A stretch of DNA of 60,966 nucleotides, the filler included, from Sphacelaria rigidula (lineage: Eukaryota): the NCBI GenBank assembly GCA_964200075.2. It is 7 parts of 7 records of this genome, joined end to end, with 100 filler letters (N's around TTAATTAATTAA, not from the genome) between each part and the next. Parts side by side here need not be neighbours in the genome. Positions count along the whole stretch, not along the records: positions 43,621 to 52,243 come from CAXNAA020010572.1; 6 more parts are not named here. One strand, given 5' to 3'. A program made the position numbers and the translations under genes. Below, piece by piece: positions 8,725 through 56,100 of the stretch; within the stretch, counting starts at the first letter, position 1, and the number at the start of each line of letters is the position of its first letter. The notes under the pieces are model-generated. The model worked only from the letters and a program-made list of their open reading frames with translations, made no database searches and was not told the origin of the DNA.

Positions 8725-8800
8725 TTGGATGAGATAAAGGGCTCCTAACAATCCCAACCTCAGAAAATATTTGTGTACCCCTACCGTAGCATCACTTTCG
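8725..8800 (+). repeat. Interspersed repeat, family B (also 43621-43690 and inverted at 51750-51820)
   Basis: GAGATAAAGGGCTCCTAACAAT...TGTACCCCTACCGTAGCATCACT is shared among the three places. Confidence 0.85.
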
Positions 8801-17348: not shown

Positions 17349-17448
17349 NNNNNNNNNNNNNNNNNNNNNNNNNNNNNNNNNNNNNNNNNNNNTTAATTAA
17401 TTAANNNNNNNNNNNNNNNNNNNNNNNNNNNNNNNNNNNNNNNNNNNN
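17349..17448. other. Artificial contig spacer
   Basis: Same 100-bp N/TTAATTAATTAA/N linker. Confidence 0.98.
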
Positions 17449-20400: not shown

Positions 20401-21470
20401 GAATCTCACTTAGCCCGAACCGCAATGGCTCCACGCTTCCGTTGATTTGGAAGACATAGCTCGGCAGGAACGTATTTGTGCGCAGAATTCATTTACACTT
20501 TATTCGCCGACCGATACGCCGCTGATTCCACTTGACGCCACGGCTACCCAAGCTGCGCAGGCGAAGACGCCTCGGCAGGTTCAAACGGCACCGTCGGCGG
20601 GTATGACCCCCAGCCAGCAGACCAAGAATTTGGCGATCTTCCGACCAGCCACCGGCGCCACCACCGGCGCCGGCGCAGTGTTTGACACTGTAGAAGTCGG
20701 TCCCACCTGCACCAACCGTTGCGGAGCAGCAGCACCTGCAGCGGCGCCGGACCCATAACCAGACCCATGCTGGCGCCGCCGCCGCCGCCGCCGCTGCTGC
20801 TGCTGCTGCCGCTGCTGCCGCTGAGGACTTAACTGCGACCCTCAACCGTCGGAAGATCTGCCGTCGGCACCCCGATTACCTCGCCCTTTGCCCTTTTGCT
20901 GACGATGCTGATGGCGCGTGGCATAAGACTGCCCAGACTCTCCACCGGAAGACGTTGGGCAATCGCGGGCGCATTGGCCGACCTGGCCACAGCGGTGGCA
21001 AGTACCTGCCGCATGCCCAGCATGCTTTTGGATCGCCGCAACCAATTGCGGCGGGGTGATTGTGCTCTTTTTATGTTCCACACGTGCAAACATTCTTTGC
21101 ACATACGTCGGTACTTGTTCAGCCATCTACGCGACCTGATGTCGAACTTCACCCCCTGCGTTAGCGTGCTCCACACGCCCACTACCCTCCGAGTACTTCG
21201 CATGAAAAGTGCGAGATGCACTCTTTGAGTACCTATCCCCATATTGGGGGGGTCGCAACTCTTCCCGCATGACCACGGGCGTCACGCTGGACGTACCACT
21301 CGAGCCGGTCGCCATCAATTCCCAGCAGGTTTGCCAGGAGCTATTCCTAGCACTAAAACTAGCACTAATGTCGATATTGTGACACCAGCCAGAAGAAAGA
21401 CTGGCGGATCACTGCTGGTGAGGAACTCCCCAGTCTTGCTGGCCTCAGTTTGCATCACCAAGAGGAGCGT
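17449..21470 (-). mobile_element. Decayed Ty3/Gypsy chromodomain LTR retrotransposon A (gag remnant, protease region, RT largely deleted, RNase H, integrase, chromodomain)
   Basis: RNase H (HIFTDHRNLVYIF, ISGDRNAWGDLLSRW), integrase (CLHCADSK, PNEVVQFDFLYV, PYSPWSNRTCERTVKEV), GPW motif and chromodomain (LVDWVGFEVQERTWEP), and a gag knuckle remnant (CHRCGQVGQCARDC). Candidate LTR ends on the minus strand: TGTGAC from 17593 and GTCACA ending at 21378. Many frameshifts. Confidence 0.9.
17668..18255 (-). pseudogene. Gypsy integrase C-terminus (GPY/F-like region plus chromodomain)
   Basis: VGDYVLYARVRRPGVTPKLMATSTGPWRMV...VLVDWVGFEVQERTWEPFKDF. Confidence 0.88.
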
Positions 21471-21479
21471 AGTCCACTT

Positions 21480-24052
21480 GCATCATAAAACATGCACTTG
21501 CGCGCAGCAGCAAACAGACCAACGCCCTCCAATCGGCCCAAAATTGCATTCAGCGTGCGCAGCAAGTCATCCTCATATTTCCCCCACCACAAAATATCGT
21601 CAACCCATACCTTGCAGTCGAGCCCAGTCAACAGTCCCATCATTATCCGCTGAAAATATCCGGTGGCCTTGAGCACGCCTTGCAGCACCCTCATGGGGGT
21701 GAAAAGTCCGTCGGGAGTCGCAATGGTGGAAATTTCCTGGGCTTCAGCCGCTAGCGGCATCGGCCAGTACCCCTGTAGCAGCATGTCAAGCTTCCCAAAA
21801 CACGGTGCACCCAACAAATCGGCCATTTCCGTCTCAGGATTCGGCATAACACTGGGAACCTTCTCGATCTGCCTGTTGACTGCTTTGTAATCACTCACCA
21901 GACGAGAGCTGCCCTTCTTGGACGCAGCCATAGCTGCGCTTGCCCACACCGCCTGGATATTGCGGAATACCAACCCCAGCACCACCAGCGTAGCCATGCA
22001 CCCTGCCAACCAGCTCTTCTTCACTGGAGAGTATGTTCTCGGGCTCGCCTTGACTGCTTCAGCCCCCGGTTTGAATCGTACCTGCAAAGGCTCCATGCGA
22101 GCAGGGGGGTCACCTCGCAACTCTCGTCGAAAAGCATTGGTCCGACGGCCGATAATTTATCGTAGCTTGCTCACCCCGTTCTCCGACATGCCATCATCCG
22201 CCGCAGCTTGCACCGCCTCCTCCAGCGCCATTGTGCGCTCAACAAGCTCTTGCTCTGGTGGCATGAACATTTCCGGACCCCGTGACACAAATCGCTCGAC
22301 AGATGAATCCACCGATTCCTCTTGACCGGTCGTCTCCTGGAGCTCCTTCACCGCGAGACTCACACGCCTGCACTCGCGGAACTCAGGCGTCTCGATACCC
22401 CGCAAAGAAGGGTGTTCTGCTTGCGCGCATGCGCCCAGATCATTGTAGATGTTGATGCCGATTTTCGCCAGAGTTTTGCTCCCGATAATAACCACATCAC
22501 CAGCGCCGGGCATAACCGCATACCGGCAGGGCTCAAGCACCACCGGCCCTCAGCTCGTGTGGAGTGCCGTACGAACCAGACACGTTTTCGAGTGCATGGC
22601 TTTTGCGTTACCGTCAGCCAGTCTTACCGGGTGTCCACGTGCCATTGATGTGACAACTGACACTCCAGGAAACGCTTTATCCAACTGGGTCGCCAATCGT
22701 TCAGACATAATGGGTATTCCAGCTCCAGAGTCCAACACAGCCTTGATCGGGCAGACTGTCTGTACGGCCAAACCAGGGACAGACAGATCAGCTCGGCAGC
22801 ATTGCGGCCTATTTTCCACGTCCAAACCCTTGGCCTCCAGCTCTGCCACCTCGGAAGCAGTGTCTAAGCCCCGCCACGCGGCACTGCCGCCGATGTCCAC
22901 TGCTGAACTGTTTCTGTCGACCGCGGAGGCTGTACTGTAGAAGCCGGAACAGTCGGCTCAGGCTGCAACGTAGCATCAGCACCGTTGGTGCCCCCTTGAC
23001 GACCATTCCCTGGAAAACCAGCCCGGGTAGGGGTAGGACCCTGGCTCCCCCCCCCGCGGAGCTTGCACCCTTCGGGGTTGTTGTTGCCGCGGCTGTACGT
23101 GTCCGCCATCCCCACCTCCGGTAGCTACAGGCTTGTTTTTCTTCTTACAGTCTTTTCTAGAATAACCTTTGTCCCCACACTCGAAACATCCTGCGCAATC
23201 AGGGCCGGGTCTGAGAGATTTTATGGATTTCGATCCGCTGTTACCTGATACAACAGGCGCGGCTGCGGCGCTAGCTGCCGTCAACAGTTCCTTCTGCCCT
23301 TGCGGACCCACCTTTTTGTTCTTGAGCCGTGGAGCGGATCGGCGATGCTTATCAACCTCCTCGACATTTCGCCACAGTTAGGCCACCTCACGAGCGACAT
23401 CGTATACAAGTTTCGGTTGATCTTTCCACCCCCTCGTCATTTGAAGCTCGTTTTGGACTTTAGTTTTGAATTCCAGACGGGTCAGACCGGTGATCATGGC
23501 TCTAGTGATGATGTGTGCCGGGCCTGCTTTATATGTACGGTCCATTTCGCGGGAAACACGCTCTGCACCCTCATTTTCCTTGAAATATTCCTGCAGGGCG
23601 CTCGACTGTCCTTCCACTCGACGCATAGCAGTTGAATCGGATCGTGCAGCAAGTGCCTTTTTTACCCCGACTGCGACCTCAGTTGAATCCATTTCCATTC
23701 CTACCCAGCATTTCGCATGCCGTGCGATCCCTTTCCTAATCCGGGCGTTAGAGAGCTCAGTTCCATCAAAAATAGTGTCCGCCAAACAATCTTGTACATG
23801 CCGAGGCACTGGCTCCTCCATGGTCAATAGTGCGCTCTTTACAGTTCGAGTCTTGTTCCGTCGCAGAACAGCCTGTTCGTATTCCTGATATTTCTGCAGA
23901 AACCGTCACGATGCCTGCTCACTAAACAAGCGCCCATACGCAGGCGCCTTGAGCGATTCCCCCGCAATCAAATGCGTCACATTGAACTTCACCTCTTCGT
24001 CGTCCCCCCCCTTGTCAGGGTTAGACTCCTTGCTCACTTTCGTTCGCGTCAT
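21480..24052 (-). mobile_element. Decayed Ty3/Gypsy retrotransposon B (gag, aspartic protease, RT), truncated after RT
   Basis: Gag with the knuckle CFECGDKGYSRKDC, protease AVLDSGAG, and RT motifs RLVSDYKAVN, FGKLDMLLQGYW, TPMRVLQG and CKVWVDDILWWG. Confidence 0.9.
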
Positions 24053-24419
24053 CTTTCAAACGCTTCCTGCACTCCGTGCTCCGTCGTATCTACCCCCGTG
24101 TTATTTTAATGAGCATCCTCGCTCTTTTTAGGGTTCAACGACGCCGTTCAAAAACAAGTTTCTTGAGTAAACGTTTACTACAGACTTGCCTGGAATCAGA
24201 ACAAGGTCTAAGTGCTTGCTCCAAAGGCTTCCTCCCCAGCAGGGCATCAGAGATTCCAAGACAGAGCAATTATACAAACAGTTATATTCATTAAACCGGA
24301 AGTAAGCTTCATGGGCTTTCTCACGAACACGATATGTTACGCATCCAAAAGTCATCCTCTAACCAATCAATCCAGGACCCACCGCATATCTACATGTTGC
24401 ATATATGCTACAGGTGGAC

Positions 24420-25300
24420 TACTCTACAGCACGCGATGTTAGCTATATATGTGTCAGTTGGGAATAAAAACTGGACATCCATGCTCCCGTTCATCCAGAT
24501 GGCGTACAACACATCTTATGACAATACAGTACAAGAGACACCGTATTTTTTGTTGCTCGGAAAAAAGCCCAGGTTACCAATCGACATTATAGTCGGCATA
24601 CCTGAGGAAAGCCAAGCCGCGACACCCGAAGAATTCTCCAGAAAAACGCGGGAAAACCTACAGTTTGGATTTGAAATTGGGATAAGAGCTCTACGAGGAA
24701 GAGTGAACGACCCAGAAACCGAAAACAAATCAAAATCGTTCCCAGCGTTCAAACCTGGTCAAAAAGTACTTCTGTACCGACCATACCAGGATTCAGAAGG
24801 GCCTAACCCGAAATTCAATTACCATGGAGAGGACCTGTCACGATGACCGAGAGCCGACCGCCGGTTGTATACAGCATCAAAGTAGGCGACGACTCTAAAG
24901 AAGTGTCAGTATATCTCGCTCATTTGAAGAAATATCCCCCCGAGAGAAACAGCACCGGCACCAGACTTTGACAAGTTGAGCGAGTTGTTCATAGGCAGAC
25001 GGATACCTCTACCGGAGATAGACCAACCAGACGAAACGCTGCACATAATAGAACGTTACACTATCAAAACGGTGGTAGGCCACGCTCCAGGCCCAGGTCG
25101 GAGGAGTCTTTCTAACTAAAGGTATCGGTTGAGACTCGAAGGCTACCGCCCAGCAGCTGACCTCACCTGTCGGGCTGATGAAATACCACAATGTAATAAA
25201 CATCTCATCGATAAATACCGTCATGACAAGGGGTTAGCAGAGTGCTCATATCCGGACTCGAAATCCAAAAATACCGGGAAACGGAAACGCATGTAACTGT
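24420..25300 (+). mobile_element. Decayed Ty3/Gypsy retrotransposon C (integrase C-terminal half plus chromodomain-like tail)
   Basis: WTSMLPFIQMAYNTS...ETPYFLLLGKKPRLP, FKPGQKVLLY, a frameshifted PWRGP, VYLAHLKKY, then IKTVVGH...YRLRLEGY. Confidence 0.85.
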
Positions 25301-26072: not shown

Positions 26073-26172
26073 NNNNNNNNNNNNNNNNNNNNNNNNNNNN
26101 NNNNNNNNNNNNNNNNTTAATTAATTAANNNNNNNNNNNNNNNNNNNNNNNNNNNNNNNNNNNNNNNNNNNN
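26073..26172. other. Artificial contig spacer
   Basis: Same 100-bp linker. Confidence 0.98.
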
Positions 26173-34796: not shown

Positions 34797-34896
34797 NNNN
34801 NNNNNNNNNNNNNNNNNNNNNNNNNNNNNNNNNNNNNNNNTTAATTAATTAANNNNNNNNNNNNNNNNNNNNNNNNNNNNNNNNNNNNNNNNNNNN
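34797..34896. other. Artificial contig spacer
   Basis: Same 100-bp linker. Confidence 0.98.
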
Positions 34897-36745: not shown

Positions 36746-37383
36746 GTGAGCTTGCTGTTCACCTGTAGAAGAGCAGTTTTTTTAGGTCGGCAGACGAGAT
36801 GAACATTCGGCTGTAGCGTGTGTGACATCATAGTCACTGCAGTTACAACCACACTCCACCGTAGGGCGTCCGGCGGTCAACATCGGTGCCGCTAAACGAG
36901 AGCAGTCCCCGCCGAGGCCATTTGTTTATCAGCGATGCACATCACACCTCCACAATGTGAGAGTGGAGCGTCTCAGCCCTGAGTAAAGATTGAGTGGAAA
37001 AGCTCGTCGTAGTCCCTGGATTTATCTTGAACCAGCGGACGTAGGCGTGCATCAACACCCACGCAGAAACGAGACTGCACCAGAACGGAAAACCAAGAAC
37101 GATCCCTGACAGAAGATGGGGTTCCGTGCCGTACGTCACCTCAACTGGCTGTGAATGCCATGAGCAAGATGAAAGATATTCCGAATATTGCACACTCAGG
37201 AGGACATGAATCATGATTCGTCCGCATTCAATTTTTGCCCGAATCAGTCTGGCGATTCTCACGAGAAGTGTGGGCTGTACCGTACATGATGCCACAGGGA
37301 GGAGCCGTTCTATCGACATCCGGCGTGGCGTACGCTCGAGCTTTGTGTGTACAGTTATGTGTAGGAATGGAGGCCGATTTTGG

Positions 37384-37815
37384 GGCACAACGCCCATACA
37401 TGGGGATGAACTCTTGTGGTGGGATGTGAAAATCAACCAATCAGAGGCCCTCCAGTGAGGAATCGGCGGAATCTAGCGCCAATGAAATGCGACCCTCGTC
37501 GTGAAATACGTGGTGAAGAATGCCTTGTGATTGGCTCGCAGGCCCGGGCCACACCTGTAGTGTACGCCGAGATGGATAGAACAGCAGAAAAACCGAGCTG
37601 CAAGTAGACAACCAGGCAGCGAGTGGTACACTGCCCCCGTAGTGGGTCATTGCGACGCTATTGTATCAGTAAATATATCCACATCTTGATACTCGTATGA
37701 CTGGTTGTGTCTTCTCGTGGCCGCGAGCGCTGGCCCAGATGCCAACGGCAGCAGCTGTCATGCTGACGGGTGCAAGCAGTACCCTGGCGGTGCAGTATAT
37801 CCGCACTATTGTGCT
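37384..37815 (+). mobile_element. ~0.9-kb non-autonomous TIR element, copy 1 (3'-truncated)
   Basis: Begins GGCACAACGCCCATACATGGGGA and is collinear with copies 2 and 3 for ~430 bp. Confidence 0.85.
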
Positions 37816-38400
37816 GGCGGCTGCTTCATGTCATAACTCCCTTGCGGGAAAAGGAGTATGCGCAGCGATTTTTTTGAATTTGCCATCTTCGACCTCGAAA
37901 GACGCTACTTATCCTCAACCAAAAAGTGCCGATCGCGCAATGCTTACAACTCGGGAACAAAGCGGAGGATTGGACTGCGGTTTTTTGCGTGCGCTTCCCA
38001 CACACGCAAGCTATGTCGCCTAGTTTGGTTTCTGCGATTGCGCGTGATGCTGACTCGCAAATGACCTAAATATACCAAAATGTGTTTTTTGCCCTGGGAG
38101 GTGATTTCCGTGCCGCTGACGCGAGGCCAGCAAAATGTCAAACCAGATCCCCTAGATCTTGTGTGTGTGCAGTGGGCTGTCAAGTGGGGTGGGCCAGCTT
38201 GCTTCCTGTGTCGAGAACCGAGCGATCTCCAGTGCTACAGCTTTCCCATTCTACACCAACTTGATGAGTGATGAAGCATGTGTTGTGTTCGTGAGGGCCT
38301 CGGCACAGGTCCGACAACTTACTGACGTGTTAACTATTCCTCCGCTCTATTTCTTATTTCAAATCTTGTGTCGATTTTTGGTCGTCAGGGCCCCCAATCC

Positions 38401-39267
38401 GGCACAACGTCCATCCATGGGATGAAATATTGTAGTGGAACGTGAAATTCAACCAGAGTCCCTCCAGTGAGAAATCGGCGGAATCTAGCGCCAATAATAT
38501 GCGACCTTCGCAGTGAATCATGTAATGAAGAATGCTTGTGATTGGCTCGCAGGGTCGAGTCACATCTGTAGTGTACGCCGAGATGGATAAAACAGCAGAC
38601 AAGCAGACAGCAAGTGGGACATCGCCGCTGCAGTAGGTCATTGCGACGCTCGTGTATCAATAAATCACCATCTTGGTACTCGTAAGGCTGGTTGTTTCTT
38701 CTCGTGGCCGCGAGCGCTGGTGCCGATGCCAACGGCAGCAGCCGTCATGCTGACGGGTGCAAGCTGTACCCTGGCGGTGCAGTATATCCGCACTACTGTG
38801 CTGTGCGTTGCTCCTTTCATTGCAGCATGGGGTCTGGCCCAGCCGGTCGAGCGGTGTATGCTGGTGCTGGTTGTGTGCCTTTACCCAGCCATGTTCGGTA
38901 TCGCGCGAGTGATGGGTCCAGGTCACATGAAGTTTTCAAAAGTCAAGTGTGTAGACAGCACTGCGTTCCGACTGAAAATAAAGATTACAGAGAGACGAAC
39001 ACAACATCTCAGCGGACACCAAACCGTCTTCGCAAGTTCTAAACACACCACAGAACAGTGATAGCTGCAGCACATGAGAGCGAACGTGAGTGTGTTTATG
39101 CTGCAGCACAGTGAAACAGGACATGTTTCATGTTTTAATTCTTCGGTTGATTTTAAACGGGCCCTCAGTCTGTGCAGGGTGCCGATTTTGGACGCTCGGA
39201 CATGAACGCGCTTCGCGCAAATAATTTAATTTACTACACAATTATCCCCATGTATGGGTGCTGTGCC
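38401..39267 (+). mobile_element. ~0.9-kb non-autonomous TIR element, copy 2 (full length)
   Basis: Terminal inverted repeats GGCACAACGTCCATCCATGGGA ... TCCCCATGTATGGGTGCTGTGCC. Confidence 0.88.
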
Positions 39268-39273
39268 TGAGTG

Positions 39274-40193
39274 GGCACAACGCCCATACATGGGGAGAGA
39301 TTTTTATAGTGAAACGTGAAAATCAACCAATCAGAGGCCCTTCAGCGAAGAATCGGCGGAATCTAGGGCTAGTGAAATGCGACCTTCGTGGTGAATTATG
39401 TAGTAATACATGCCTGTGATTAGATCGCAGGCTCGAGTCACACCTGTAGTGTACGCCGGGACGGATGGAACAGCAGCAGCGAAACGAAGCTGCAAGCAGA
39501 CAAGCAGGCAGCGAGTGGTACATTACCTTACAGTGGGTCATTGCGATGCTCGTGTATCGGTGTAACCCAATTTTGGTACGGGGTATGGCTGGTTGTGTTT
39601 TCCGTGACGGTGAGCGCTGGCGCCGATGCCAGCGGCAGCAGCCGCCATGCTGACGGGTGCAAGCAGTACCCTGGCGGTGCAGTATATTCCCACTGCGCTG
39701 TGCGTTGCTCCTTTTATCGGAGCACGGGATCTGGCCGACGCCGGTTGAGCGGTGTATACCGGCGGTGATTGTCTTTACCGAGCCATGTTCGGCATCGCGC
39801 AAGAGATGGGTCCGGGTCAGATGAACTTTTCAACAGACAGTCGAGTGTGTATACCGCACTGCGTCCCGACTGATGCCATATTTTACAGAGAGATTAACAC
39901 AACCATACAGCACCTGAAGCATTCTCAGCGGAGACCAAACCGTGTTCGCAAGGTTCAAACACACCATAGAACAGTGAAAGCTACAGCACATTTGAGACCG
40001 GACGTGAGTGTGTTTGTTCTGCAGTGCAGTGGAACAAGAGATATTCCATGTTTTTGTTTGAGTTTTGCAGTTGATTTTGAGCGGAGTCCTCAGTGTTTGC
40101 CGGGTGCCGGTCTTGAACGCTCGACCATAATGACGCCTGGCGCTAATAATTGAATTCATTGAAAAAATCATCCCCATGTATGGGTGGTGTGCC
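39274..40193 (+). mobile_element. ~0.9-kb non-autonomous TIR element, copy 3 (full length)
   Basis: GGCACAACGCCCATACATGGGGA ... TCCCCATGTATGGGTGGTGTGCC. It starts 6 bp after copy 2. Confidence 0.88.
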
Positions 40194-42147
40194 AGGTGAG
40201 CAGAATTTCAATAAAATAAAAGTGTACACTTTTCAAGAGTTATTATCGGGACAGGCTCGATCGACCGAAAATACCGAAGAGGGAGAAACTGGGCTGAAAC
40301 GTCGCAGGACCCCGATGACCGGTCAGCCCGTAAGTCACTCAACATTGACTACGGATTACTAATTTTTTTGGAATGTTGAGTAGATACAAATATCTCCAGA
40401 TCCCCAATGTGATGAGCGGTGGCAAGCGAGATGTGCCCGAAAAAATCGCCAATACGAAAAAATGACAACATACCTCGAAATGACTAGGTGAAACGCCCAT
40501 TACTGTAGATGAAGAATATTTTTCAGTACTGGGTATATTAGTGGCACAGCCAGCCAGTATATTTGATATTCGTGGAGTCGGGTGCCAAAATATGATACGC
40601 TGCACACCCTGGACAAACGATTATTTTGTCAAAAAGTGTACCGCGTACAGTATGGAATCTTTTGTCTATTGCAATAGGCGCAAAAGTCGATACTGTACGC
40701 AGGACACTTTTTTACCGTGTATTCTGTTGTCCAGGGTATGATATTCTGCCAGTACTTCGATACGCGGCGCACGGCTGGTTGGGGGGAGGGGGGCAGCTGG
40801 AGGCGCTCGTATATGCAATTTGGCTAAACTGTAGCACAGAAAAAAATGTCGGTTTCAACCCACACTTTCCAACCCAACTTTCGGCTGGTGGCAATGGATT
40901 TCTATCCGGTGCCTCCGGAGAGGATGAAACAAGTGTTGAACGTGCGTGATCTCTTTACCGCTACTGAGGATGCATGGTATGGAAGCACTTACTCAACCCT
41001 TTCGAAACCCTCCCCTCCCGTCCCCGGGCCAGACTTGTCATCATTTCAAGTTCCTTACCACAACCAGGAAAATTATATAGAAACAGGAAAGACCGACGGT
41101 AAACATTTTTAGTGTGAAAAAGCAAAGCAGACTTGCGAAGCATACGTCATGGATGTACCGAAAATGAAACCCCGAAGTGGTCGGGTTGGGTTTGTCCAAT
41201 GACATCACGCGACGGGCGAGGTGTGTCCAATTGTATGCATCGACAAAACTCTCGCGTAACAGTACAAACACCCAAATATTTGAATTTGTCAGAGGGCATC
41301 TGTGAAATACCGTTTTGGTGGCCTGCATTATCAAGAGTTCGCAAGCGTAGGAAGCCACACTATGCGACGGCAAAGATATAGCGAGTAAGAGGAAATCCTA
41401 TCGCTACATATGCAAGTGCTGAAGAGCTACCCATACGCATTTCACGTTCAGCTGGAGGTGGCTGAGAAGTACGGCCAGGATGATGCCAGGCGTTTCCCTG
41501 AAATAGGGGCCAAGGGGTTGCCCCGGCGCACACCGCCCCCCCCTCTCGCTTAACGCTCCGTCTCGAAAGGGATGCGTGGTCAATGGTCAAATGACTAAGG
41601 CAAGCAACAGATGAGTACGCCCCCCTCTCGCTTACCTGAACGTGAGCACAGTAACCGCAGCAAGAGAAAATTCCACAAGGCACACGGGATTATGTGGCAG
41701 ACATCAGGCGGACATGACTGCCAGCGTCCAAACAGGCGACGTCCTGCAAACGGTCGAGAACGAATCGGGACAGCCTTTCACAACCAGCCTAACCCAACTG
41801 TACCTACAGTCTAGCACAACTGAAGAACGATATTGCGGCGATCCATGCAAGAAAACAGGAGATGTGCATTATCACGGCATGAAGCCCCAACGCCGCCCAC
41901 GACGACATACGGTCCGAACGCGATACTCCTAGCGGAAGCCGGAGTAACACGCCTTACGCAGCACAATGTGGGACTATGCAATGTCCAGGCATGATCAACC
42001 CGCATTACAGAGGCGGTGTCGTGGAAATGTACGGCAAAAAGCGCAGCATGAGATACGCGGTAAAACCACAGCCCACGAAGTCACAGCCTGTATCGGATGA
42101 TATGCCAAAGTAACGGCCCCCGCCTACACGCTGCACCAGTAGTATGT

Positions 42148-43520: not shown

Positions 43521-43620
43521 NNNNNNNNNNNNNNNNNNNNNNNNNNNNNNNNNNNNNNNNNNNNTTAATTAATTAANNNNNNNNNNNNNNNNNNNNNNNN
43601 NNNNNNNNNNNNNNNNNNNN
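43521..43620. other. Artificial contig spacer
   Basis: Same 100-bp linker. Confidence 0.98.
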
Positions 43621-43690
43621 GAGATAAGGGGCTCCTAACAATTCTAACCTCAGAAATTATTTCTGTACCCCTACCGTAGCATCACTCCCC
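43621..43690 (+). repeat. Interspersed repeat, family B
   Basis: Near-identical to 8731-8800. Confidence 0.85.
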
Positions 43691-44413
43691 GCGTTTCCTT
43701 GCCGGATGCTTGCGATTGTATGCATGTCTCGAATGCGACAAGGGAGCGCACGGAAAAAATTAGTCGAAGGCGATGCGATTGCCGGAGTATTTCAATCGCA
43801 ACGGCCGTCGTGGAACCGTGTTGGACATCTACAATGCAGGGGCAAGCGCGGCTGCCCCGATACATGAACTACAGCCATGGTGTACTGCTTAAACCGCTGC
43901 TCAACACATTTGCCCACCTCGGCGATAGAACAAAGAAGAACACCAGTAAGCAAGCAAGTTTGGCCTCATGCTTCCAACAATCCTACGAATGGTTGACTAG
44001 ACATTGACATGTGTATGCACGGAGGGCATTTTCGCGGTAGCGGGATGTCGCGGGTTGTGTGGGAGAAGATGGACACGGGGACACTGGGGAACGTTGTAAC
44101 GAACGAATATGACCTGAAAACGAATAAACACCTCGCATGCACATTACTTGGGTTCAAGTTCGGCACGTCTAGCGGCATGCCAGTACTTTCGTAGAGCAAG
44201 GAAATTGTCGTTCACAGCAACAGCGCGATAAAGAAAAGCAGCAGCGACAACGCTCTTTTCGGATAGTTTGGGAGGAAAAAGCAACATTCGTCTTTGCAGC
44301 GGGCATCCCCTTGTGAACCTACACGACTTCAGCAAGATCTTACCCTAAGCATGAAATGGGTACGCAAAGCTTCGACGTGATGGTGATGAACGGTGAGGGG
44401 GGTAGGGCTTCAC

Positions 44414-47400
44414 CTTCGGTGTTGTAGCTTGTGGCTCTGCTCCAGGTGTAGCAATATGTGATTGAGGGTGATGATCATGTCATCTTCCGTCTAAACGTCA
44501 GGGCCAGACAGTGTTATCGACAAACAACGTGAGGGGCCGCACAACGAAAATCGGGCAAGGGGGCACATGAAAGATGTTACAGCAGGAATATATGGGCACA
44601 GTGCACAACAATGGTGCATACTTTTACTCAAGCAGGGAAAATCGAGTGACTAACGTATCAACCACAGTGGCGTCCCCGTGAGCAAAACATAGTGGAGAAA
44701 GAAGAATTCACTTCTGCATTCACAGCGCCTTTCTAGGGAGGGATACGAAGCAAGGAGTGACAATTTTAATCGTGTGGCCCGCTTCATCTATGACTCCAAC
44801 ACTGGCATGAACGCATGAAAAGATCGGATATCTGATCCCTTCACTTGGGGGTGTGAACGGAGTCGTGCACCAAACGTCAATCCCTCATCGCCTCACCTGT
44901 ATGAAAACATCGTAGTCCTCAACGCGAGACTTCATAAAGATGCGATGCTGCGGCCGACGGTATCATAACACAAAGGGATAGAGATACGTATCGGTGGGCG
45001 GGGTGACAAGGTCTAACTAAGGTGAGCGCTGAATCGAAATCCGGGTACATACAGGTGAAGATGTCACTTCAGTTGGTTTGAGCGCCCCGCGACGATGATC
45101 CTGTAACGTGTAAGGCTGTGGTGCGGCTGTCACTGTGTATACACCAAAGTACTCCCCGATCCTTGCAGTTTCGCCCAGACGTCTTGCACTAGCCACCTGT
45201 GGCGTTGTCACTTGCACGGGATTTCTAGCGTCCCTTCGCTTGGCGAGCACTCTTGACCAAACGGAACCGCAATGTTCTCACGTTGGCGTCATGTCCCCGG
45301 TTGTCAGAATCTAAAACTAGTGACCATGGGTGAACTTGATGCTTGATTCGTCGCATGAGACGGACAATGTTTCACTGAGTCGTCGTGTGACACGTTCAAC
45401 TTCATGTAAAGGAAACGGATCCAGAAAACTTACACTGGAACATATTTTATACTGCACATTCCACTCTGGATTCACAGAGACGTGTGATGAATTAGGAGGG
45501 TTCACCTTGTAATGCGTGAGAGGACCGCGTGCTTAGAGGACCGCATCGGAATTTGAGCATCCCCATGGTTAGGGTTAGGGTTAGGGTTAGTGTTGGGGTT
45601 ATGGTCAGGGGCGTGGTACCTGCAGGGACTGGCCCGACTGGTTTTCAAAAACATCAATCCTGAGGTGTTCTGAACTACGGTGCGGTCCTCTAAGCACGCG
45701 GTCCTCTCACGCATTACACACCTGCATGTGCCGACGAGGTAAGCTGCAAGGCTAATACATATGACAAAGCACCCAGTTACATGCCTCAAATGTCGTGTCG
45801 ACTGTAGTAACCTGCGGTAAACCACTGTGCCATTTACCTGGATTCATATTACGCAGCGAATTGCAAACCACAAAAGATATCCACGTTGGCATATCCTGCA
45901 AAATGGTTTACACGCGTACACAGTATATATTATCTATATCTATCTATATCTATCTATATCTATATATCGATTGTTCTCGTATGAACAGTTATGCCTCAGA
46001 TATTAACAAGAGCCATCATATGACTCCGCACCAACGTGTGCTGCTCCGCTTGACAATTTCGTCAAGTTCTCACGAGCGCGCACATGAACAACTTAGTCGA
46101 TCCGTCATTTTTCATGTGCACACGATAGTGACATTACGAATAAGACACAGATAGGCAGCGAACGCGGCGTACGAGAAGCTGTGGGCTCTTGAGGCTATGC
46201 TAGCCAGCTCGTCGCCGAACAGACCCTTTAGGATAAGCCAATTTAGTGCGTTGTAATGCGTGAGAGGACCGCGTGCTTAGAGGACCGCGCCGTAGTTCAA
46301 ACCACCTCAGGATCGACGTTTTTCGGAACCAATCGGGTCAGTCCTCGGAACCAATCGGGTCAGTCACCACGCCCCTGACCTCAAGTCCAACACTAACCCT
46401 AAGCCTAACCCTAACAATAGGAATGTTCGAATTCCGATGCGGTCCTCTAAGCACGCGGCCCTTTCAAGCATTACAGCGTACTCCTGCAACGTGCACAGGG
46501 TCGGGGGGGGGGGGGTGAGTCGTTTCCATGTGGTGAATACCATCCGCACTTGACGGGCGAAGGGGATGATCGACTAATGCTTGAACGAAGCGACGGAGGG
46601 TATCAAAACTGTGCGCGGCGGGTGGGTGTCAACATTCCGACCGTTGTAAACCGATTTTGATCGCAGTTGGTTATTGATTATCAACTAACTACACGATGAA
46701 TTGAACGATAATATATCTTGAGGCGAAATTCAACCAGCAAAGCCGAGTATAACGACACATGCCATCCGACACAGTAGACGGCGATACAGTATTCAAGGTC
46801 TGACGGCGAAGGGGGAAAATGCTTACCTTGATGCTCAGCAAGCTTGTGATTTCCGGAGAGTGCTCCTCATTCGAGTATGACACGTAGTTGCCTGTCCGTT
46901 CGCAGAAAAGACGATCTCGAATGAGATCGTCGACCTCGGTAGAATTCCATGCGGTGACCAAGTGCACATGCGGCAAAAACCCGACCTGCGTGTTCGTCGT
47001 ATCGAGTTTCATTGCCTCGCAAATGAGTTTGCGCTCAGAACACCTGAGGACAATCACGCTCCGATGTAGAGCACCAGAAACGCAGTGTGCACGCAATGCC
47101 ACGTGGCTCACTCCTGACGGAGTGGACGATTTCATGTTTATTATCCAACGATGCATCTACTAGCCGACCTACATGTTCCCATGAGTGATCTGACGTCGGA
47201 GGGCAGTGCTTGGAGTCACTTTTTGCACAGAGAAACCATTCCGGTGCGTTGCTGCAATCAACGTTTTTGAAAACACAAACGGTATCGGCAAAACATGCGC
47301 ATTCACATCGCTTGATAATGCTCACACCACTCACACACAAGCTCCCAACGGGTGTTCAACATCGTGTCTCATACCCTTGAGCTTTTTGTGATGCATACTG

Positions 47401-50400
47401 CGATGCGTGAGAGGACCGCGTGCTTAGATGACCGCATCAGACTTTGAACATCCCAATGGTTAGGGTTAGGGTTAGGGCTAGTGTTAGGGTTAGGGTCAGG
47501 GGCGTGGTACTTGCAGGGACTGGTCCGATTGGTTTTCAAAAACGTCGATCCTGAGGTGTTTTGAACTACGGCGCGGTCCTCTAAGCACGCGGTCCTCTCA
47601 CGCATTACACATACAATCGAGCATCCGTCCCTCCCAACGGTAGGATCGCTATTCTCATCGAACCAGCCAGACGACAGGCATAAACTGCTCACCAAGCTTC
47701 CTCGGCATATTTTCTTGGTCCACGCCGAGGACCAGACTACAAACACGTGCTTAGTACTTGGAAAGACTGCAGAGTCGGAGAAACTAGTTCGTTTCACGTT
47801 TGCTCTCCCTGAATCCCAGAGGCCAAGCATTTCATGTCTTGCATCATGAGTGGGCTCTTTCGAGCTCTTCTCCGCACACACCTCGCAAGCCTCTCTCATC
47901 TCATCCACCATCATGAGCATGCAGTCCAGCTTATCCACGGGGGTGGTACTGCCTAAAAGAGCAGTATTTCGGTCAAACGATGTGACCACGAAGAGTATCC
48001 GTCCCCTCGACCCACCCTCCGTACGTTCATGTTCGTCGTCGCCCTGATTTTTCGTCAAAAAGTGAATTGGTTATGTGTTGTTCACCGAATGGAGGTACGA
48101 ACGTAATCCAGGAAGTCGAAACGTACGCCAAAAATGCTCTTGTGAAAATCCGAGAGGAAAAGAACGCTGCAAAAACCTGGTATCGTGCACGCCCTCCTTG
48201 CTTGACATTCGCCGGCCGGCTCACAGGAACTGGTTGTCGAATCCGGCGCAGAAGTACAGGGCACCACAATACCCGCCCTCTTCCACCCTTCCACGTACAA
48301 CGATGGTTGATTGGGATAGAACTTCCTGCCCTACCCAGGTACAATTGCGTAATTCTACTCTTGTTCCTGCTCGTCCACACACGGAAAATACACTATTACC
48401 TGCGTGCCCCCGGGCGGAGACCACTTGTCGATCAACTCTCGCCGCCGTCCCGCCTCGATTGCAGGCACGTACGTCGCACCCCACAACATCACACCATCCT
48501 CCAATCGCTGGATTCTGTCTCTGTAGCTGGTATTACCCCCCTCCAGCGCTAACGGCCGCACAGGTGCTTCTTGATCTATCATTTTGCGCTTCCCACCGTT
48601 GCCGTTTTTGCCTTTTCCATGTTGATCTATCGCAGCGAACAAGACGCTGCTGCCCACAAACCGTCGACCCTCTAGAGAATCCTGGTCTTGCTCCGACGTT
48701 CCCTTGCCCTTCTTATGTTGGCTATTTTGGTTCGGTTTCACTCCTGTCGTCGTGGACTCATGAGGTCGACGAGGTTTGGACATGGCGGCGGCAGCAGCGA
48801 CGGCGGCAGCTGCAGCAGCCTCAGCGGCAACACCTTCATCACCATAATGTCGCCACAGTTCTTGCGCTTTCTTCACCAGCCATTTTTGCCTTTCGCGCTG
48901 TATCTGGCCGTAGTGTGGTGAGTGTGTGCCTGCCTCGATCATGATCTCACCCCTCTCTTCGTTTTGTCCTTGCTCCACGTGATGCAGCATGTACGGCAAA
49001 ATAGCGGGAAAAGAAACAAACACCGAAGGTCACACATGGCGCATGGTGGGCCGACGGCAGACACAAGCACGAACGAAGATCCGTACACCTCTTCGACAAG
49101 AATTTCAGGAGATTGCGCGCATGGACCAGCGAAGTGCCGTGGTTGTATGCATCTAACATACTGGGGCTTTCCCCGATTGTGAGTGACGGGCGAGGGACAA
49201 GTAGGCGCATATTTATATATATATGCATATATAAACTAATATGTGCGTGTATCGTGCAGCTGCCTCGCATTAAGGCCATCCATCATCCGTTACTACACTA
49301 CCGTCGTAGCAAACATGGGAGATGCATTTGCATCAGCGCCACAATCTGCAGTTCGCGAGAACAAAGTCGGGAACGAGCCATGCCACGGCAGGAGTTGCAC
49401 ATTTGGATCAGATATTTCTCATTGAGAGGTTCCTGACGCTAGGAGCTATACTAGGATAATATGGGTCAGGGTATGTTCGTTCCAAAATTCATCCGAGATA
49501 TCCCCAGTCCATCGAAACGGTAATAGTGGTGTGCTTTTGCACATTTCATAAGTCGTGTTTAGGATGAGAGAGAGACTCCAAGCAGTTCAACCCTGGGAAA
49601 TAGATGTGCACCACTACCATGGGATAACTCAATTTTGAAAACTCCCCACGCGAAGTCTTTCGATCGGCACTGTGAAAGTTTCGACGCAAGGGGCAGCACC
49701 AGAATATTCCTCCTAGTTTCCACCACTGTGGCCTCTTCCCAAGCTGAGGGGTACCTACCAGATGCCCTCATAGCATCTACGTTCGGCCGTGACTTGCAAT
49801 TTTTCCACGTTTGCATGCAAACTTGCGATCATAATGTACCGCGACTGGCGCTCAGCCCGTATATATATCGTGACTTCAAGCGCCCAAGATCCCCCGTCGC
49901 CAAACCCCCCCGTTACGGTCAATGGTCAAACGACTAAGGCAAGCAACAAGCAAGCCCCCCCCCCCCCCCCCAAGCGCACTCGCTTTGGTGACTTAATCTA
50001 TATGGTGGCGCAGTATGTGACTGTGACTTCCCGACTCACTCTCATTTGGCAGCTTCAGCTCCGGGTTGACGGTAATGTACTCGCTTCGAGCTTGACTCCT
50101 ACGCTCTTCTTCACGATTGTGTGGAACATCAGGGGTACCGACGTCATCACCAATGTCGCCATGGCCAGGCTCATGTTGCGCCGGGGTAGTGATATTTCCC
50201 TCCGCTTTGTTGCTTTCACCATCCCCCTTGCCACCCTCCTCAGCAATTCCTCCCTTCACCGCAGTATGTCCGCCCCTATGTTGTTTGGGAATCGTGGCAT
50301 CTGCACCGGAGTCCACGACGACACCACTCCAGATCACTGGAGGTGTAGGGTCGGCGGTTTCAACACCGGACTCGAACTTGGCACGGAGCGCGCTCGACAC

Positions 50401-50571
50401 CGGGCCTTCAATGCTGATGCACAAAGAAACAAGGTACAGCATCGAGATGACCAGCAAGGCTACCGCGGCTAATTTGGAAAATACCCTCCCGCCGTTGCTT
50501 CGGTTGCCGTGCCTGTCGTACTTTGACTCCTGCGCATTATCATCGATACTGCGCGAAGTCCTTGGCAGCAT
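44414..50571 (-). CDS. Type II membrane, glycosyltransferase-like protein, partial. Exons ~50571-50040, ~48970-48400, 48043-47882, 46985-46827, 44947-44897, 44490-44414
   Basis: N-terminal single TM segment (KLAAVALLVISMLYLVSLCISI) and a long low-complexity stem. Phase-compatible exons then give RILFVVTSFDR..DKLDCMLMMVDEMREACE|VGFLPHVHLVTAW..LSIK|HRIFMKSRVEDYDVFIQ|TEDDMIITLNHI. YDVFIQ.EDD is a GT-A-fold DxD-like motif. The exon 1-2 junction and the 3' exons are uncertain. Confidence 0.7.
45508..45718 (-). mobile_element. Telomere-repeat-bearing MITE copy 1 (211 bp, TSD CACCT)
   Basis: 37-bp TIR TGTAATGCGTGAGAGGACCGCGTGCTTAGAGGACCGC at both ends, internal TTAGGG tract, CACCT on both flanks. 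Confidence 0.95.
46252..46475 (+). mobile_element. Telomere-repeat-bearing MITE copy 2 (224 bp, TSD GCGT)
   Basis: Same TIRs, degenerate CCCTAA tract, internal duplication of TCGGAACCAATCGGGTCAGTC, GCGT flanks. Confidence 0.93.
47399..47609 (-). mobile_element. Telomere-repeat-bearing MITE copy 3 (211 bp, TSD CATAC)
   Basis: Same TIRs (left one slightly mutated), TTAGGG tract, CATAC flanks. Confidence 0.95.
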
Positions 50572-50744
50572 CGTGCCTTATACTTTTGTTGTTACCTCCC
50601 CTGCTCCGCTCCCGATCACCGACTTCTTGGAGCTGTTTCACGCAAAGTGGCGAGCAGGGTAAGGGTACGTTAAGGCGTACTCATACTTCCCATGACCTGC
50701 CCGTCAAAGTGGTGAGCAAGCGACCTAGGAAGAGCAGGGACCAT

Positions 50745-50971
50745 TGTAATGCGTGAGAGGACCGCGGGCTTAGAGGACCGCATCGGAATTTGAACTTCCC
50801 TAGGGTTAGGGTTAGGGTTAGGGTTAGTGTTAGTGTTAGGGTCAGGGGTGTGGTACCTGCAGGGACTGGCCCGATTGGTTTTGAAAAACGTCGATCCTGA
50901 GGTGTTTTGAACTACGGCGCGGTTCTCTAAGCACGCGGTCCTCTAAGTACGCGGTCCTCTCACGCATTACA
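50745..50971 (-). mobile_element. Telomere-repeat-bearing MITE copy 4 (227 bp, TSD CCAT)
   Basis: Same TIRs with one extra 16-bp unit at the right end, (GGGTTA)3GGG at 50803-50823, CCAT flanks. Confidence 0.95.
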
Positions 50972-51026
50972 CCATGTTCCCGGAGTGTACACTGTCGTCG
51001 GGGAAACAGGCGGTACGTCAGACAGC

Positions 51027-51235
51027 TGTAATGCGTGAGAGGACCGCGTGCTTAGAGGACCGCGCCGTACTTCAAAACACCTCAGGATCGACGTTTTTCA
51101 AAACCAATCGGGCCAGTCCCTCAGGTACCACACCCCTGACCCTAACACCAACACTTACCTGACCCTAACCGTAACCATGGGAATGTTCAAATTCCGATGC
51201 GGTCCTCTAAGCACGCGGTCGTCTCACGCATTACA
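51027..51235 (+). mobile_element. Telomere-repeat-bearing MITE copy 5 (209 bp, TSD CAGC)
   Basis: Same TIRs, degenerate CCCTAA tract, CAGC flanks. Confidence 0.95.
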
Positions 51236-51749
51236 CAGCTACCAAAACCATCCTCGAGTTTGCTGTTCGTTTTTTCGGTATTGCAAGCCCGCTACTCACG
51301 GCTCCGGGGACAAAATCATGAGTCCCTGTTCTCGCGAGGGTACAGGCCGCAACGTGGAATTCTCTCTCGAAATTCTGCCCGCGCGGGTCGTCACTGGTTA
51401 CAACACGGGACGTTGCACGTGCATATAACCCATTCCATCCTCCCAAGATGGTAGAAACCTCTAATAGCCCCCTCTCGCAACCGGCCTGCAATCCATAGTA
51501 CCTCATTCGTTGTAAGGCTGAGAATGGTACGTTGTACCAACATTGGAAACCTTTGACGTTACACGCAGGGTCATTATACACAAGATATTGTGGCTTGATA
51601 CTGGGTAAAAGTAGGTATTATGGGTTGTTTGGATGGACTATGAAGACCTCGGGATTACCGAATGTGAGGGTACTTGTATAGATACGGCCGGGCAGTGCAC
51701 AACTCGAATAACCAAGTTTAACGAGCTTTCGCATGAGACTTGTTGTGGA

Positions 51750-51820
51750 GAGATGCTACGGGAGGGGTGCACAAATATTTTCTGGGGTCAGAATTGTTAG
51801 GAGCACTTTATCAAATCCAA
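51750..51820 (-). repeat. Interspersed repeat, family B (inverted copy)
   Basis: GATGCTACGGGAGGGGTGCACAAATATTTTCTGGGGTCAGAATTGTTAGGAGCACTTTATC is approximately the reverse complement of 8731-8795. Confidence 0.8.
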
Positions 51821-51864
51821 AACACGACTTATATTAATATGCGAGAGTAAGCCAGGATTACTAT

Positions 51865-52081
51865 TGTAATGCGTGAGAGGATCGCGTGCTTAGAGGACCG
51901 CGCCGTAGTTCAAAACACCGCAGGACCAACGTTTTTCAAAACCAATCGGGTCAGTACCTGGAGGTGCCATGCCCCTGACCAAAACCCTAACCCTAACCCT
52001 AACCCTAACCCTAACCCCCACCACAGGGATATTCAAATTCCGATGCGGTCCTCTAAGCATGCGGTCCTCTCACGCATGACA
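51865..52081 (+). mobile_element. Telomere-repeat-bearing MITE copy 6 (217 bp, TSD ACTAT)
   Basis: Same TIRs, perfect (CCCTAA)5 at 51985-52014, ACTAT flanks. Confidence 0.95.
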
Positions 52082-52243
52082 ACTATTCCAATGTGCTGGG
52101 GATATCCAGAATAAATATGCAAACGGGGATGCCCTGACCCATGTTCTTGTGCGTCTAGAATGGTTAGGAGCCCCTGAACCAGACAAAATTTCGCGAAAAA
52201 AGTGCACCCCTACCGTAAAACTGCTCTGTAGTTGAACCACCCA

Positions 52244-52343
52244 NNNNNNNNNNNNNNNNNNNNNNNNNNNNNNNNNNNNNNNNNNNNTTAATTAATTAAN
52301 NNNNNNNNNNNNNNNNNNNNNNNNNNNNNNNNNNNNNNNNNNN
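52244..52343. other. Artificial contig spacer
   Basis: Same 100-bp linker. Confidence 0.98.
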
Positions 52344-53114: not shown

Positions 53115-56100
53115 GTGCTCTAGGTCGTTGATGAGCACAGGGGTAGGATGCACCCCTTCTAGCTTTCTTCTAGCGTTGCTCATCTTGCGCCCAGATTCCG
53201 AAGGCGGTCGGGGCTGCGAACCTCCCACTGCTCCCAAATCTCCGCTCTCATCACCCCCGGACGCTGTTGGCGTAGACCCCACGATACACAGAAGCAGGGG
53301 ACGAAGCAGGAAAACGTGAGGGTAAGGGTATTTGGTGCTACCGTATGCATATCGCACGGGGCATTGCCATAGATGTGCGAGATAGCGAACGTCTCGAAGC
53401 CGGACACACAAGGCTATACCGGAGCACAATCTGTCTTTGTAATCGCTCAGATCTCTTCATATGCCTCGAGAGTACCTCTTGAACTTTTACTTTTGCTCTC
53501 AAAAGAGTGCAGGGCATCATGCTATAGTAGATACACGTTGATGTAGACGAGATGATCCAGCAGGCTGGTCATAAAACACAGGAAGATGGACGTTTCGTTT
53601 GCGTTACTGTACCTGTGTTTGCATTTACTGCATTGGGTGTGTTGCAAAGACACCCTTGACCTGAGTAGAAAAGCAGCCTGTCGACCACGAAGAGAATCAG
53701 AATACTTCTTCCTTTGCACTGGTTTTCAGGAGGGTAAGCAATAGTGCCGCCATAAATCCTCGAGCACGGGGTGTCAGCCCCATACTCGTAGAGGTGGTTC
53801 AAGTATGACATCGCACTGCTGTGGCCTGGCTCTGGTAATTTGACGTCGAGACGGCCGAGGAGCAAGAGTGTGAGAGGAGGGCCGGCTTTAAGGTCAACCC
53901 CCCCTATTTCTTTCTTTTTTTTTGTTCCTTCTTTTTTATTCAGAGCGTGTTTCATTTTCGTTTTTCTTGGGTACGTCTATCATGACACCACCACGGCTGG
54001 ATCCCTGGGGGGTCAGTTAAAGTGTGACAATCAATCAATCAATCAATCAATCCTGTCCGAAGACGAACAAAGGTGGGCAATTACTAGTTTGGTAGCAAGT
54101 ATCAGTCGCGGACGGACGTTCTTGAACCTACGCTAGGGCAGACGATTTTTCAACACATCTATGCTAATGTTTTGGACATGGATATCACGTTATACCCACA
54201 GTAGAGGACATGCCACTGAAAAAGATATTTGCTTTCGTTGATCACAGTCTACTCTGTGTTGCTATCCGCCTGTTGTCCTTCTCTTCTTTCAAGGCGATGA
54301 TTAGATCATTGAGCAATACATCCCTTTCAGATGCTCTCCACGAAAAAATGATGTCTCATCCTTCTCACCTCACGAAAAACAAGTGCACATCATTTGCCGC
54401 AACGATGATTTCCCGGGGGAAGATGGAGGAGGGGTGGCACAAATGCGTCCCAAACACGTATTTTGCCCTTTGCAATACGCGTGTGTGCCATGCGTACATC
54501 CCTTCGCCTCTGGCCCGTCGACAATCAATTCACTGAATGAAGCATAAATGGTGGATACGCTTTTGGGCTCTGTAGAGTAACATTCTCAACAACGATTTTT
54601 TGGTTTCGAGCTTCTGTCTTCAACATCCTTCCGCCACCCGTCTCTCTCCCACGCAAACCACTGCCAAATTTTATCTCGCGCTCACCCGCTTTTGTCGCTT
54701 GCCTATTACCCTTAGTCTCCAGCCAGTCGATGACAGGTTCGTTGAGGAACACGTCCATAGTGGACAGGAGAACTTCTCGACCGTCTCTCAGCGCCTGCAA
54801 TGTCGACATCATGTGCCTTACGTTTAAAAACAACAATCGCAATAGGCGAGTCGTACGGAAGGCGAGAAGGGGCGCAGATAGTGGAGCGGGCGTGCTAACC
54901 GCACCGACGTGCCGTGACAAGAGTGTTGGAACCGAAGTCTTCAAGAGGTGTGCTTCAATTTCTCCCAGACAAAACCTGGATATTGACGTCGATGCTGAAT
55001 GGAAGATAGGAAGGAATCGCTTGCAGGACGAGGCGATGATGTGTGCGCGTGTGTGTCTGTTCGGCGCAAGGTGTACTTGCTCCCCCTAAAACTGACTTTT
55101 TCAAGGAAGTATGTGATTTCCGTCGTTCGAAAGGAGAGAATGTGAGGAGCATCAGTAGCTACAGCATGATAACCACAGTCGACGCGGTGCGGGAGTGCTG
55201 TGTGATCATATCCGGAAAATCGACATGTACCGTGTGCACCCGGGGAAATATGTGCTTCATGTCTCGAGGCAACGGAGTCATCCCGAGGAAGGGGAGGAGT
55301 TGGAAGTGTGTGTTGTGTGACATCCCATCTATTCTGGACGCTAGACAGCCTCCACCATTCGGGCATATGCGGGCGCATCAGCCGGGGTTACACAGCCGCA
55401 CAGGAGTGTTATTTTCAATTTTGTTCAATCACTCCGCCTTCCTTTTGCGGCGCTTGCCTTATATTTTCGAAAAGGGCTAAGAGGTCCTTTTCTCTCGTCA
55501 ACCGTGAAGTCGAATTTCGTATACCCATGACGTGGTCGCTTTCCGCTGTTGTGCATTATGTCAGGAAAGATCACAGATCGTGCGACTAGCACCGAGATTC
55601 GAACCCACGTACCAACCATCACAAAATTTCAAGGTAACCAACCGAGGTACCGGGCGAGCGTGTCAAAAAAAAAAAACAGAATCGAAGGTATTTTCGAGCG
55701 GTATCCGGATGTATTTGTATTAGGGTCTGGGGGTAGGGTTAGGGTTTGTATCTGTATACCATACCCTCACTATTCCGTGAGAGGCATGGGGCACTTTTGT
55801 TTTTTTCACACGCGCCCTGCTTTTGTAGCCCTTTCATCGCGATTGGTTTGTAATTCTTCACTGCTGTAAGTGCATTCGTATTAATTAAGAAACACACAAG
55901 GTGTTATACACCAGTATACGTCGACTCAAACCGACTCCGTCGTGGTCACCGCGTTGGGAAAAAAAAACGCGATGAAAAACAAAAGAGTAGCCAACTTGGT
56001 TGTTCATAAATACGTACTAATGGATATATCAATCGCTTGGCTGTTTGTTACAGTTTCGTTATTTTACTTTCGTGCTCGCGGCGGAGACAGTAGGTAAAGC

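Follow-up and report, generated by a model that had tools for sequence, protein, structure and literature searches.

A high-copy, apparently undescribed miniature transposon with an internal telomere-type tract in the brown alga Sphacelaria rigidula

The window analysed here is a 60,966-nt stretch of DNA from the brown alga Sphacelaria rigidula (assembly GCA_964200075.2), and its subject is a miniature inverted-repeat transposable element (MITE) that carries an internal tract of the telomere-type hexamer TTAGGG. The window consists of seven unrelated contigs of 8623-8624 bp each, unplaced contigs concatenated in size order with no genomic adjacency across the N-linkers between them (44 N, a 12-bp AT palindrome and 44 N; 8625-8724, 17349-17448, 26073-26172, 34797-34896, 43521-43620 and 52244-52343). 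All six copies of the MITE lie in a single contig, at 43621-52243 between two linkers (CAXNAA020010572.1), and the other 52 kb of the window contain none. Three copies are on the plus strand: copy 1 (45508-45718; 211 bp, tract at 45569-45610), copy 3 (47399-47609; 211 bp, tract at 47460-47501) and copy 4 (50745-50971; 227 bp, tract at 50806-50847). The other three are on the minus strand: copy 2 (46252-46475; 224 bp, tract at about 46373-46414), copy 5 (51027-51235; 209 bp, with the most decayed tract of the six at 51134-51174) and copy 6 (51865-52081; 217 bp), which is nested in a member of a second MITE family that we call MITE-B. A preliminary description of the sequence had placed six copies at these positions, three in each orientation, and our analysis recovered the same boundaries. 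The copies range from 209 to 227 bp and share 84-94% pairwise identity, with copies 2 and 6 the most divergent (84-89% against the others); copy 2 contains an internal tandem duplication of 22 bp (46323-46365).

The consensus of the six copies is bounded by terminal inverted repeats (TIRs) that form a perfect 37-bp inverted repeat, as had been proposed, starting with TGTAA and giving the element TGT...ACA ends. Among the 12 individual ends, ten read TGTAA, one TGTCA and one TGCGA, and the TIR hairpin scored z = -10.7. Each TIR arm contains the core AGAGGACCGC twice, 16 bp apart, as exemplified by copy 1 (left TIR at 45508-45544, plus strand, 37 bp with a TGT end and two cores; right TIR at 45682-45718, minus strand), and copy 4 has a third AGAGGACCGC-type unit at one end, in an extra 16-bp subterminal repeat of its right TIR (50918-50960). 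The paired cores are putative transposase sites. Copies 4 and 5 are inverted relative to each other and only 55 bp apart, forming a 491-bp near-palindrome (84.5%; 50745-51235) with TIRs outermost that could fold into a long hairpin or move as a composite.

Every copy is flanked by its own target-site duplication (TSD), with lengths of 5, 4, 5, 4, 4 and 5 bp for copies 1 to 6 among duplications of up to 15 bp tested; the probability that six matches of 4 bp or more arise by chance is about 1e-14. We also compared the contig with the contigs of four of ten listed runs (X3, X4, X5 and X8), of which X3, X4 and X5 look genomic and X8 is RNA only by guess. One run that contains the contig carries the label 'algae metagenome', in keeping with an algal host. 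In all four runs, a joint connects 51859 directly to 52082 and skips 222 bases, corresponding to the 217-bp copy 6 plus one 5-bp TSD. This joint is the empty form of MITE-B, into which copy 6 jumped. For copies 1-5, no empty site was found among the 15 joints listed (612 more exist). Contigs from other samples run from unique flanking DNA into copies 1, 2, 3 and 5 (X3) and into copy 4 (X4), indicating that these insertions are common to several samples. The presence of six copies within one short contig might suggest segmental duplication or an assembly artefact; however, the TSDs and flanks are distinct, the copies differ by 6-16%, and flank-to-copy contigs occur in X3 and X4, which together exclude such an origin for practical purposes. 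The distinct TSDs and the empty site of copy 6 instead bear out the proposal that each copy arose by independent transposition.

The internal tract starts some 60 bp inside one terminus of the MITE and comprises seven in-phase hexamers in the consensus, within the six to eight or so reported at first: three TTAGGG units, TTAGTG, a split TTAGGG/TTGGGG-like unit, TTAGGG and TCAGGG. Only three consecutive units are thus perfect, TTAGTG and TCAGGG being imperfect. The phase of the tract is kept in all six copies, with 3, 2, 5, 4, 1 and 5 perfect TTAGGG units in copies 1 to 6 and longest perfect runs of 3, 1, 3, 3, 1 and 5; the run of five is the (CCCTAA)5 that had been noted in copy 6 (51985-52014). 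A strict four-G-run motif is present in only two of the six copies. When the window was scanned for TTAGGGTTAGGG with at most one mismatch, 23 matches were obtained compared with 0.20 expected, and 22 of the 23 fell inside the six copies. A short degenerate TTAGGG patch is located outside any copy, at 55720-55749. TTAGGG is the telomere motif of the brown alga Ectocarpus, as the preliminary description had stated (PMC11541908).

To estimate abundance we used summed contig depth, which gives no exact copy number and is read as an order of magnitude. Unique DNA of the contig was covered at depths of about 24-42 (X3), 8-21 (X4) and 0-5 (X5), whereas the X3 bins over MITE copies reached 46,000-294,000. 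At one core position of copy 4, depth was 7,050, 8,264 and 5,544 times that of single-copy DNA in X3, X4 and X5, respectively, and when one core position was taken from each of copies 1, 4, 5 and 6, the summed depth was 14,016, 19,244 and 11,337 times single-copy depth. Because depth was thousands-fold that of single-copy DNA in all three genomic-looking runs, we conclude that the family is high-copy, roughly on the order of 10^4. Dozens of contigs exit the MITE exactly at its termini into unrelated sequence (e.g., 92-93 contigs behind position 47610 in X3 and X4). The family is therefore a MITE in the usual sense, being short, non-coding, bounded by TIRs and flanked by TSDs, and present in high copy number with uniform size. 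Depth over the tract exceeded that over the TIRs by 1.9-fold (X3), 1.35-fold (X4) and 11-fold (X5), an excess that we did not use as evidence because other TTAGGG-rich contigs pile up there and repeats of this type receive special treatment in the depth calculation; TTAGGG telomeres could produce such an excess, but it cannot be traced to the host. At 47458, the loose ends in X5 include 39 contigs that join a different left-hand sequence to the TTAGGG tract (agreement 0.52), perhaps reflecting another tract-bearing family or a subtelomeric repeat.

The explanation that best accommodates these data, with a probability of roughly 0.6, is that a non-autonomous cut-and-paste MITE is mobilised in this brown alga by a Ginger-type transposase and carries its telomere-type tract as a passenger. 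The first part of this explanation, mobilisation in trans by a DDE transposase of Ginger type that resembles Gypsy integrases, is probable from the sequence of the element because its TGTNR termini and 4- or 5-bp TSDs fit Ginger. Known Ginger elements have TGTNR termini and TSDs of 4 bp (Ginger1) or 4/5 bp (Ginger2/Tdd) (PMC2836005, PMC10045372), matched here by the consensus TGTAA and by TSDs of 4 or 5 bp. Non-autonomous Ginger derivatives are known, and the 37-bp TIR is close to the short limit of the 40-270 bp given for Ginger TIRs (PMC2836005); Ginger2_NA MITEs occur in the insects Bombyx and Rhodnius (PMC3845634). In such a mechanism, the transposase would bind the paired subterminal repeats of each TIR, cleave at the CA-3' ends and join these to a target whose two strands are cut 4 or 5 bases apart. 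The closest described counterpart in brown algae may be DNA5-N1_Ec32 of Ectocarpus, a non-autonomous element annotated as 'possible Ginger?' with TGT...ACA ends (TGTTG...CAACA) and a 5-bp TSD; compared by description rather than by sequence, it differs in its length (502 bp), its TGTTG ends, its 9-bp imperfect TIR and the lack of a telomere motif in the entry (PMC12477816 supplement 1).

Several observations weigh against the Ginger assignment, which draws on the ends and the TSD lengths. Ginger1 targets CCGG/CCGT, which was found in none of the six TSDs, and Ginger2 prefers AT-rich RTATAY, a rule derived from Nematostella elements (PMC2836005), whereas the six sites here show no such preference. 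TSDs of 4 and 5 bp are also mixed within this one family, unlike in Ginger, and the accessible text on Ginger systems does not mention an internal telomere-type tract (PMC2836005, PMC3845634). Scans with the TIRs of viral contigs, metagenome contigs and prokaryote genomes revealed no autonomous partner or transposase: the TIR patterns had no match in viral or metagenome contigs, and the one match in prokaryote genomes was a chance 19-mer with no further likeness. A search of viral contigs for brown-algal DNA by way of a long interspersed nuclear element (LINE) protein also yielded nothing.

It is possible, but less likely, that the MITE is mobilised outside Ginger, either by an unclassified DDE family or by the integrase of a long terminal repeat (LTR) retrotransposon acting on TG...CA ends. 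LTR integrases are not known to excise elements, and the MITE carries TIRs rather than LTRs. On the other hand, the TSDs of Ectocarpus Gypsy (4 bp) and Copia (5 bp) elements are of the two lengths present here, and the accessible part of the curated Ectocarpus library contains no autonomous Ginger, its one candidate being the 'possible Ginger?' element (PMC12477816). Automated annotation of a kelp genome, in contrast, reported 875 Ginger matches (PMC12595068). The IS481EU/Banshee group resembles the MITE in its TGT...ACA ends, TIRs shorter than 50 bp and mixed TSD lengths within a family, but it is reported from parabasalids only and has TSD classes of about 4, 15 and 25 bp (PMC10045372); the MITE has TSDs of only 4-5 bp and an algal host and does not fall within that group. 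In Ectocarpus, the Sola, hAT, P, KDZ, EnSpm, Harbinger, Mariner and piggyBac elements differ from the MITE in their ends or in the length of their TSDs (PMC12477816).

We then asked whether the tract is constrained, scoring divergence as differences from the six-copy consensus. The TIRs differed at 12 of 444 positions compared with 62 of 820 in the core (P = 0.0004), showing that the TIRs are constrained, a pattern that mobilisation restricted to copies with good ends would produce. In contrast, differences in the tract (21 of 251) were no rarer than in the rest of the core (41 of 569; P = 0.57). Four of the six copies have no TTAGGG within 300 bp, and copies 4 and 5 have only each other's tracts. 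The preliminary description had suggested roles for the tract, including an influence on target choice. Within these six copies, as distinct from the whole genome, a role was not supported by excess conservation, the outcome that the preliminary description itself had named as counting against its proposal, and an influence on target choice was not supported either, since no copy has telomeric flanks save for a neighbouring copy. Its proposal that the family spreads short interstitial telomeric sequence holds, given a high-copy family with the tract in six of six copies. TRAS/SART-type elements insert into telomeric repeats; the flanks of the six copies show no such insertion by the MITE.

The absence of excess conservation, the short perfect runs and the non-telomeric flanks make it quite probable that the tract is passenger cargo fixed in the founder and not a working part of the MITE. 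By this account, a seven-unit TTAGGG-type tract would probably have entered the founder once, already imperfect before amplification, and would then have been copied as a passenger, scattering short interstitial telomeric tracts by the thousand through the genome as a by-product. We speculate that loss of the founder's coding interior left a break at which the tract might have arisen, either as a telomerase patch or by capture of an interstitial telomere; plant telo boxes have been proposed to originate from telomerase (PMC3022908). Two points argue against a pure passenger: six copies give the conservation test little power, and divergence has not disturbed the phase of the tract even in copies 2 and 6, the latter with its perfect five-unit run.

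A function for the element itself, in which telomere-repeat-binding proteins (Myb/telobox) are recruited by the tract and promote transposition, direct insertion or protect the MITE from silencing, is unlikely in our view. The retention of phase in every copy, the great abundance of the family and the otherwise unexplained clustering of six copies would all be consistent with recruitment, as would the canonical T at 47478 in 954,120 of 987,597 depth units in X3, a position at which other TTAGGG contigs also pile up. There is also a hint of recurrence, in that one of 106 listed metagenome loci (L014) has a tract inside a TIR element of unrelated sequence. However, the tract lacks the excess conservation that the TIRs show, two of the six copies have a longest perfect run of a single unit, the flanks are not telomeric, and MITE-B, equally abundant and tract-less, is also concentrated in the same contig.

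The local concentration of copies is a further difficulty for a passive element. Six copies in one of seven contigs has P of about 6e-5 under a uniform distribution, and with 5,000-30,000 uniformly distributed copies in an assumed genome of 300-600 Mb the probability of at least six in a contig is at most 3e-4; passive insertion at random targets does not account for the cluster. Nor is recent local hopping a favoured cause, since the six copies have 57 private compared with 8 shared variants. MITE-B, which is unrelated to the first family, is high-copy and hosts copy 6 at 51749-52217, with further pieces at 43621-43688, 49458-49618 and 8725-8796. Because its three pieces in contig 43621-52243 make MITE-B concentrated there as well, this contig is suggested to be a generally MITE-rich region. 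MITE-B has AGAG/GAG-type ends that resemble the Harbinger2-type AGAG ends given for Ectocarpus (PMC12477816), its depth reaches 784,000 per bin in X3, and two contigs of the window begin inside it. A broader proposal, in which an unrecognised Ginger-type lineage in brown algae amplifies the MITE while its TTAGGG array recruits telomere-binding proteins, thereby clustering insertions and creating about 10^4 docking or healing sites, strikes us as a long shot.

The tract might alternatively act for the host after insertion, as a telomere-healing seed at breaks or as a telo-box-like regulatory site, a role that would be compatible with a passenger origin and that we consider improbable. In yeast systems, interstitial telomeric sequences can seed new telomeres (PMC6410037), and the TTAGGG motifs of subtelomeric satellites have been hypothesised to be healing seeds (PMC11541908). 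Run X8, in which most of the unique DNA is missing, contains full-length copies inside contigs of 2,278 and 4,177 nt, which would fit a regulatory site if X8 is RNA as guessed; among the listed runs containing contig 43621-52243, there was no RNA sample. Yet there is no sign of a copy at a chromosome end, all six being intact and internal with both TIRs, and the tracts are short and decaying, with the four-G-run motif confined to two copies.

We also considered that the C-rich strand of the tract might serve as an array of splice branch points, such that the MITE is spliced from transcripts. This strand starts with a donor-like T-GTAATG, has four to seven CTRAY motifs per copy, and keeps CTRAC in both fixed variants, and a CAG|G acceptor ends telomere-repeat runs in 33 of the 106 listed, unrelated metagenome loci. 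Nevertheless, the first AG past the last branch motif varies between copies (AAG in three, TAG in two, CAG in one), 29-30 extra bases would remain after splicing, the X8 contigs contain full-length copies in unspliced form, and no joint within a copy at these sites occurs among the 15 listed (612 more exist). Splicing is accordingly very improbable.

Whatever the role of the tract, this appears to be a real, high-copy, Ginger-like MITE with telomere-motif cargo that is apparently undescribed. A literature search, with subscription papers and Repbase Reports outside its scope, found no report of a brown-algal MITE that encloses a telomeric tract, and a text search of the accessible part of the giant-kelp genome paper found no telomere terms (PMC13495250). 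A precedent among DNA transposons bearing a telomere motif is TBE of the ciliate Oxytricha, an autonomous Tc1/mariner element with an ANT TSD, three ORFs (open reading frames) and the motif at its TIR tips, so that its telomere repeats lie within the TIRs rather than internally, as the preliminary description had said (PMC4724952). The MITE, in contrast, has its tract about 60 bp inside, TSDs of 4-5 bp and no ORF. It is also like the MITEs with hitchhiking microsatellites, short TIR elements that disperse an internal simple repeat as cargo, such as the (GTCY)n MITEs of insects (Coates et al. 2011, a table row in PMC6947457), from which it differs in that the repeat is the telomere hexamer. The Ectocarpus 98-bp subtelomeric satellite is a brown-algal repeat with internal TTAGGG motifs, but it is tandem, almost exclusively subtelomeric and not a TIR element (PMC11541908).

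A review names transposition only as one possible route by which interstitial telomeric sequence may arise (PMC6410037), and even with the tract as a passenger the family would provide a concrete case of such sequence being spread by DNA transposition. The family would introduce thousands of false telomere signals into S. rigidula assemblies and fluorescence in situ hybridisation, and it suggests that brown algae have a Ginger-type transposase. A family of about 10^4 members allows a direct test of whether the telomere-motif cargo is under selection, and if the tract does recruit telomere proteins, it would represent a new use of the chromosome-end machinery by a selfish element.

A scan of metagenome contigs for the tract-junction pattern returned at least 106 loci; the same pattern had no match in viral contigs, and none of the 106 metagenome loci listed is homologous to the MITE arms. 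Inverted repeats surround the tract in eight of the 106, most being inverted telomere runs or simple repeats, and of these eight L014 alone qualifies as a clean, short TIR element: 161 bp (769-929), with TIRs of about 39 bp (87% complementary) and an interior consisting wholly of degenerate TTAGGG tract. One copy of it was seen, and the script found no TSD; the design of a telomere tract within TIRs may recur. Others among these loci are marine eukaryote contigs with a GC content of 0.56-0.74, in which introns are apparently built from telomere repeats (L004, L011, L024, L034, L060, L062, L100, L103 and others). At 33 of the 106 loci listed, and in 49 of 470 runs, (CCCTAA)n runs directly into CCAG|G, and for 23 of these 49 acceptors the first 8-21 nt of the exon that follows are also present upstream as a direct duplication, a count without a chance control. 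The pattern resembles intron gain in which a telomere patch is combined with tandem duplication, with CTAAC as the branch point, and we guess from the GC content that the hosts are haptophyte-like. Such introns were not met in the literature searched, including the accessible part of PMC11347835, and may be in print.

Elsewhere in the MITE-bearing contig, the four ORFs tested between the copies had no Pfam match. Among them, a 224-aa ORF (48355-49029, minus strand) has one unnamed relative (81% identical) and no Atlas match, and another encodes 194 aa (49993-50577, minus strand). A scan of the window against Rfam gave no match. Another contig contains a LINE-like ORF for which, among 120 of 254 matches, the S. 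rigidula homolog is the only one with a eukaryote name; relatives with 65% identity (P0010, P0128 and P0129) are annotated in bacterial metagenome-assembled genomes (Parasphingorhabdus, Hyphomicrobiales), most simply explained as contamination of these bins with host DNA. The first contig has 72-bp inverted repeats (93%) at both ends (9-80 and 8553-8624) and a 360-bp palindrome (3305-3663). Decayed pieces of a Gypsy-type LTR retrotransposon (RVT_1, rve and Integrase_H2C2) extend over 17668-24846, and a degenerate tandem repeat with three copies of about 0.9-1 kb occupies 37383-40205.

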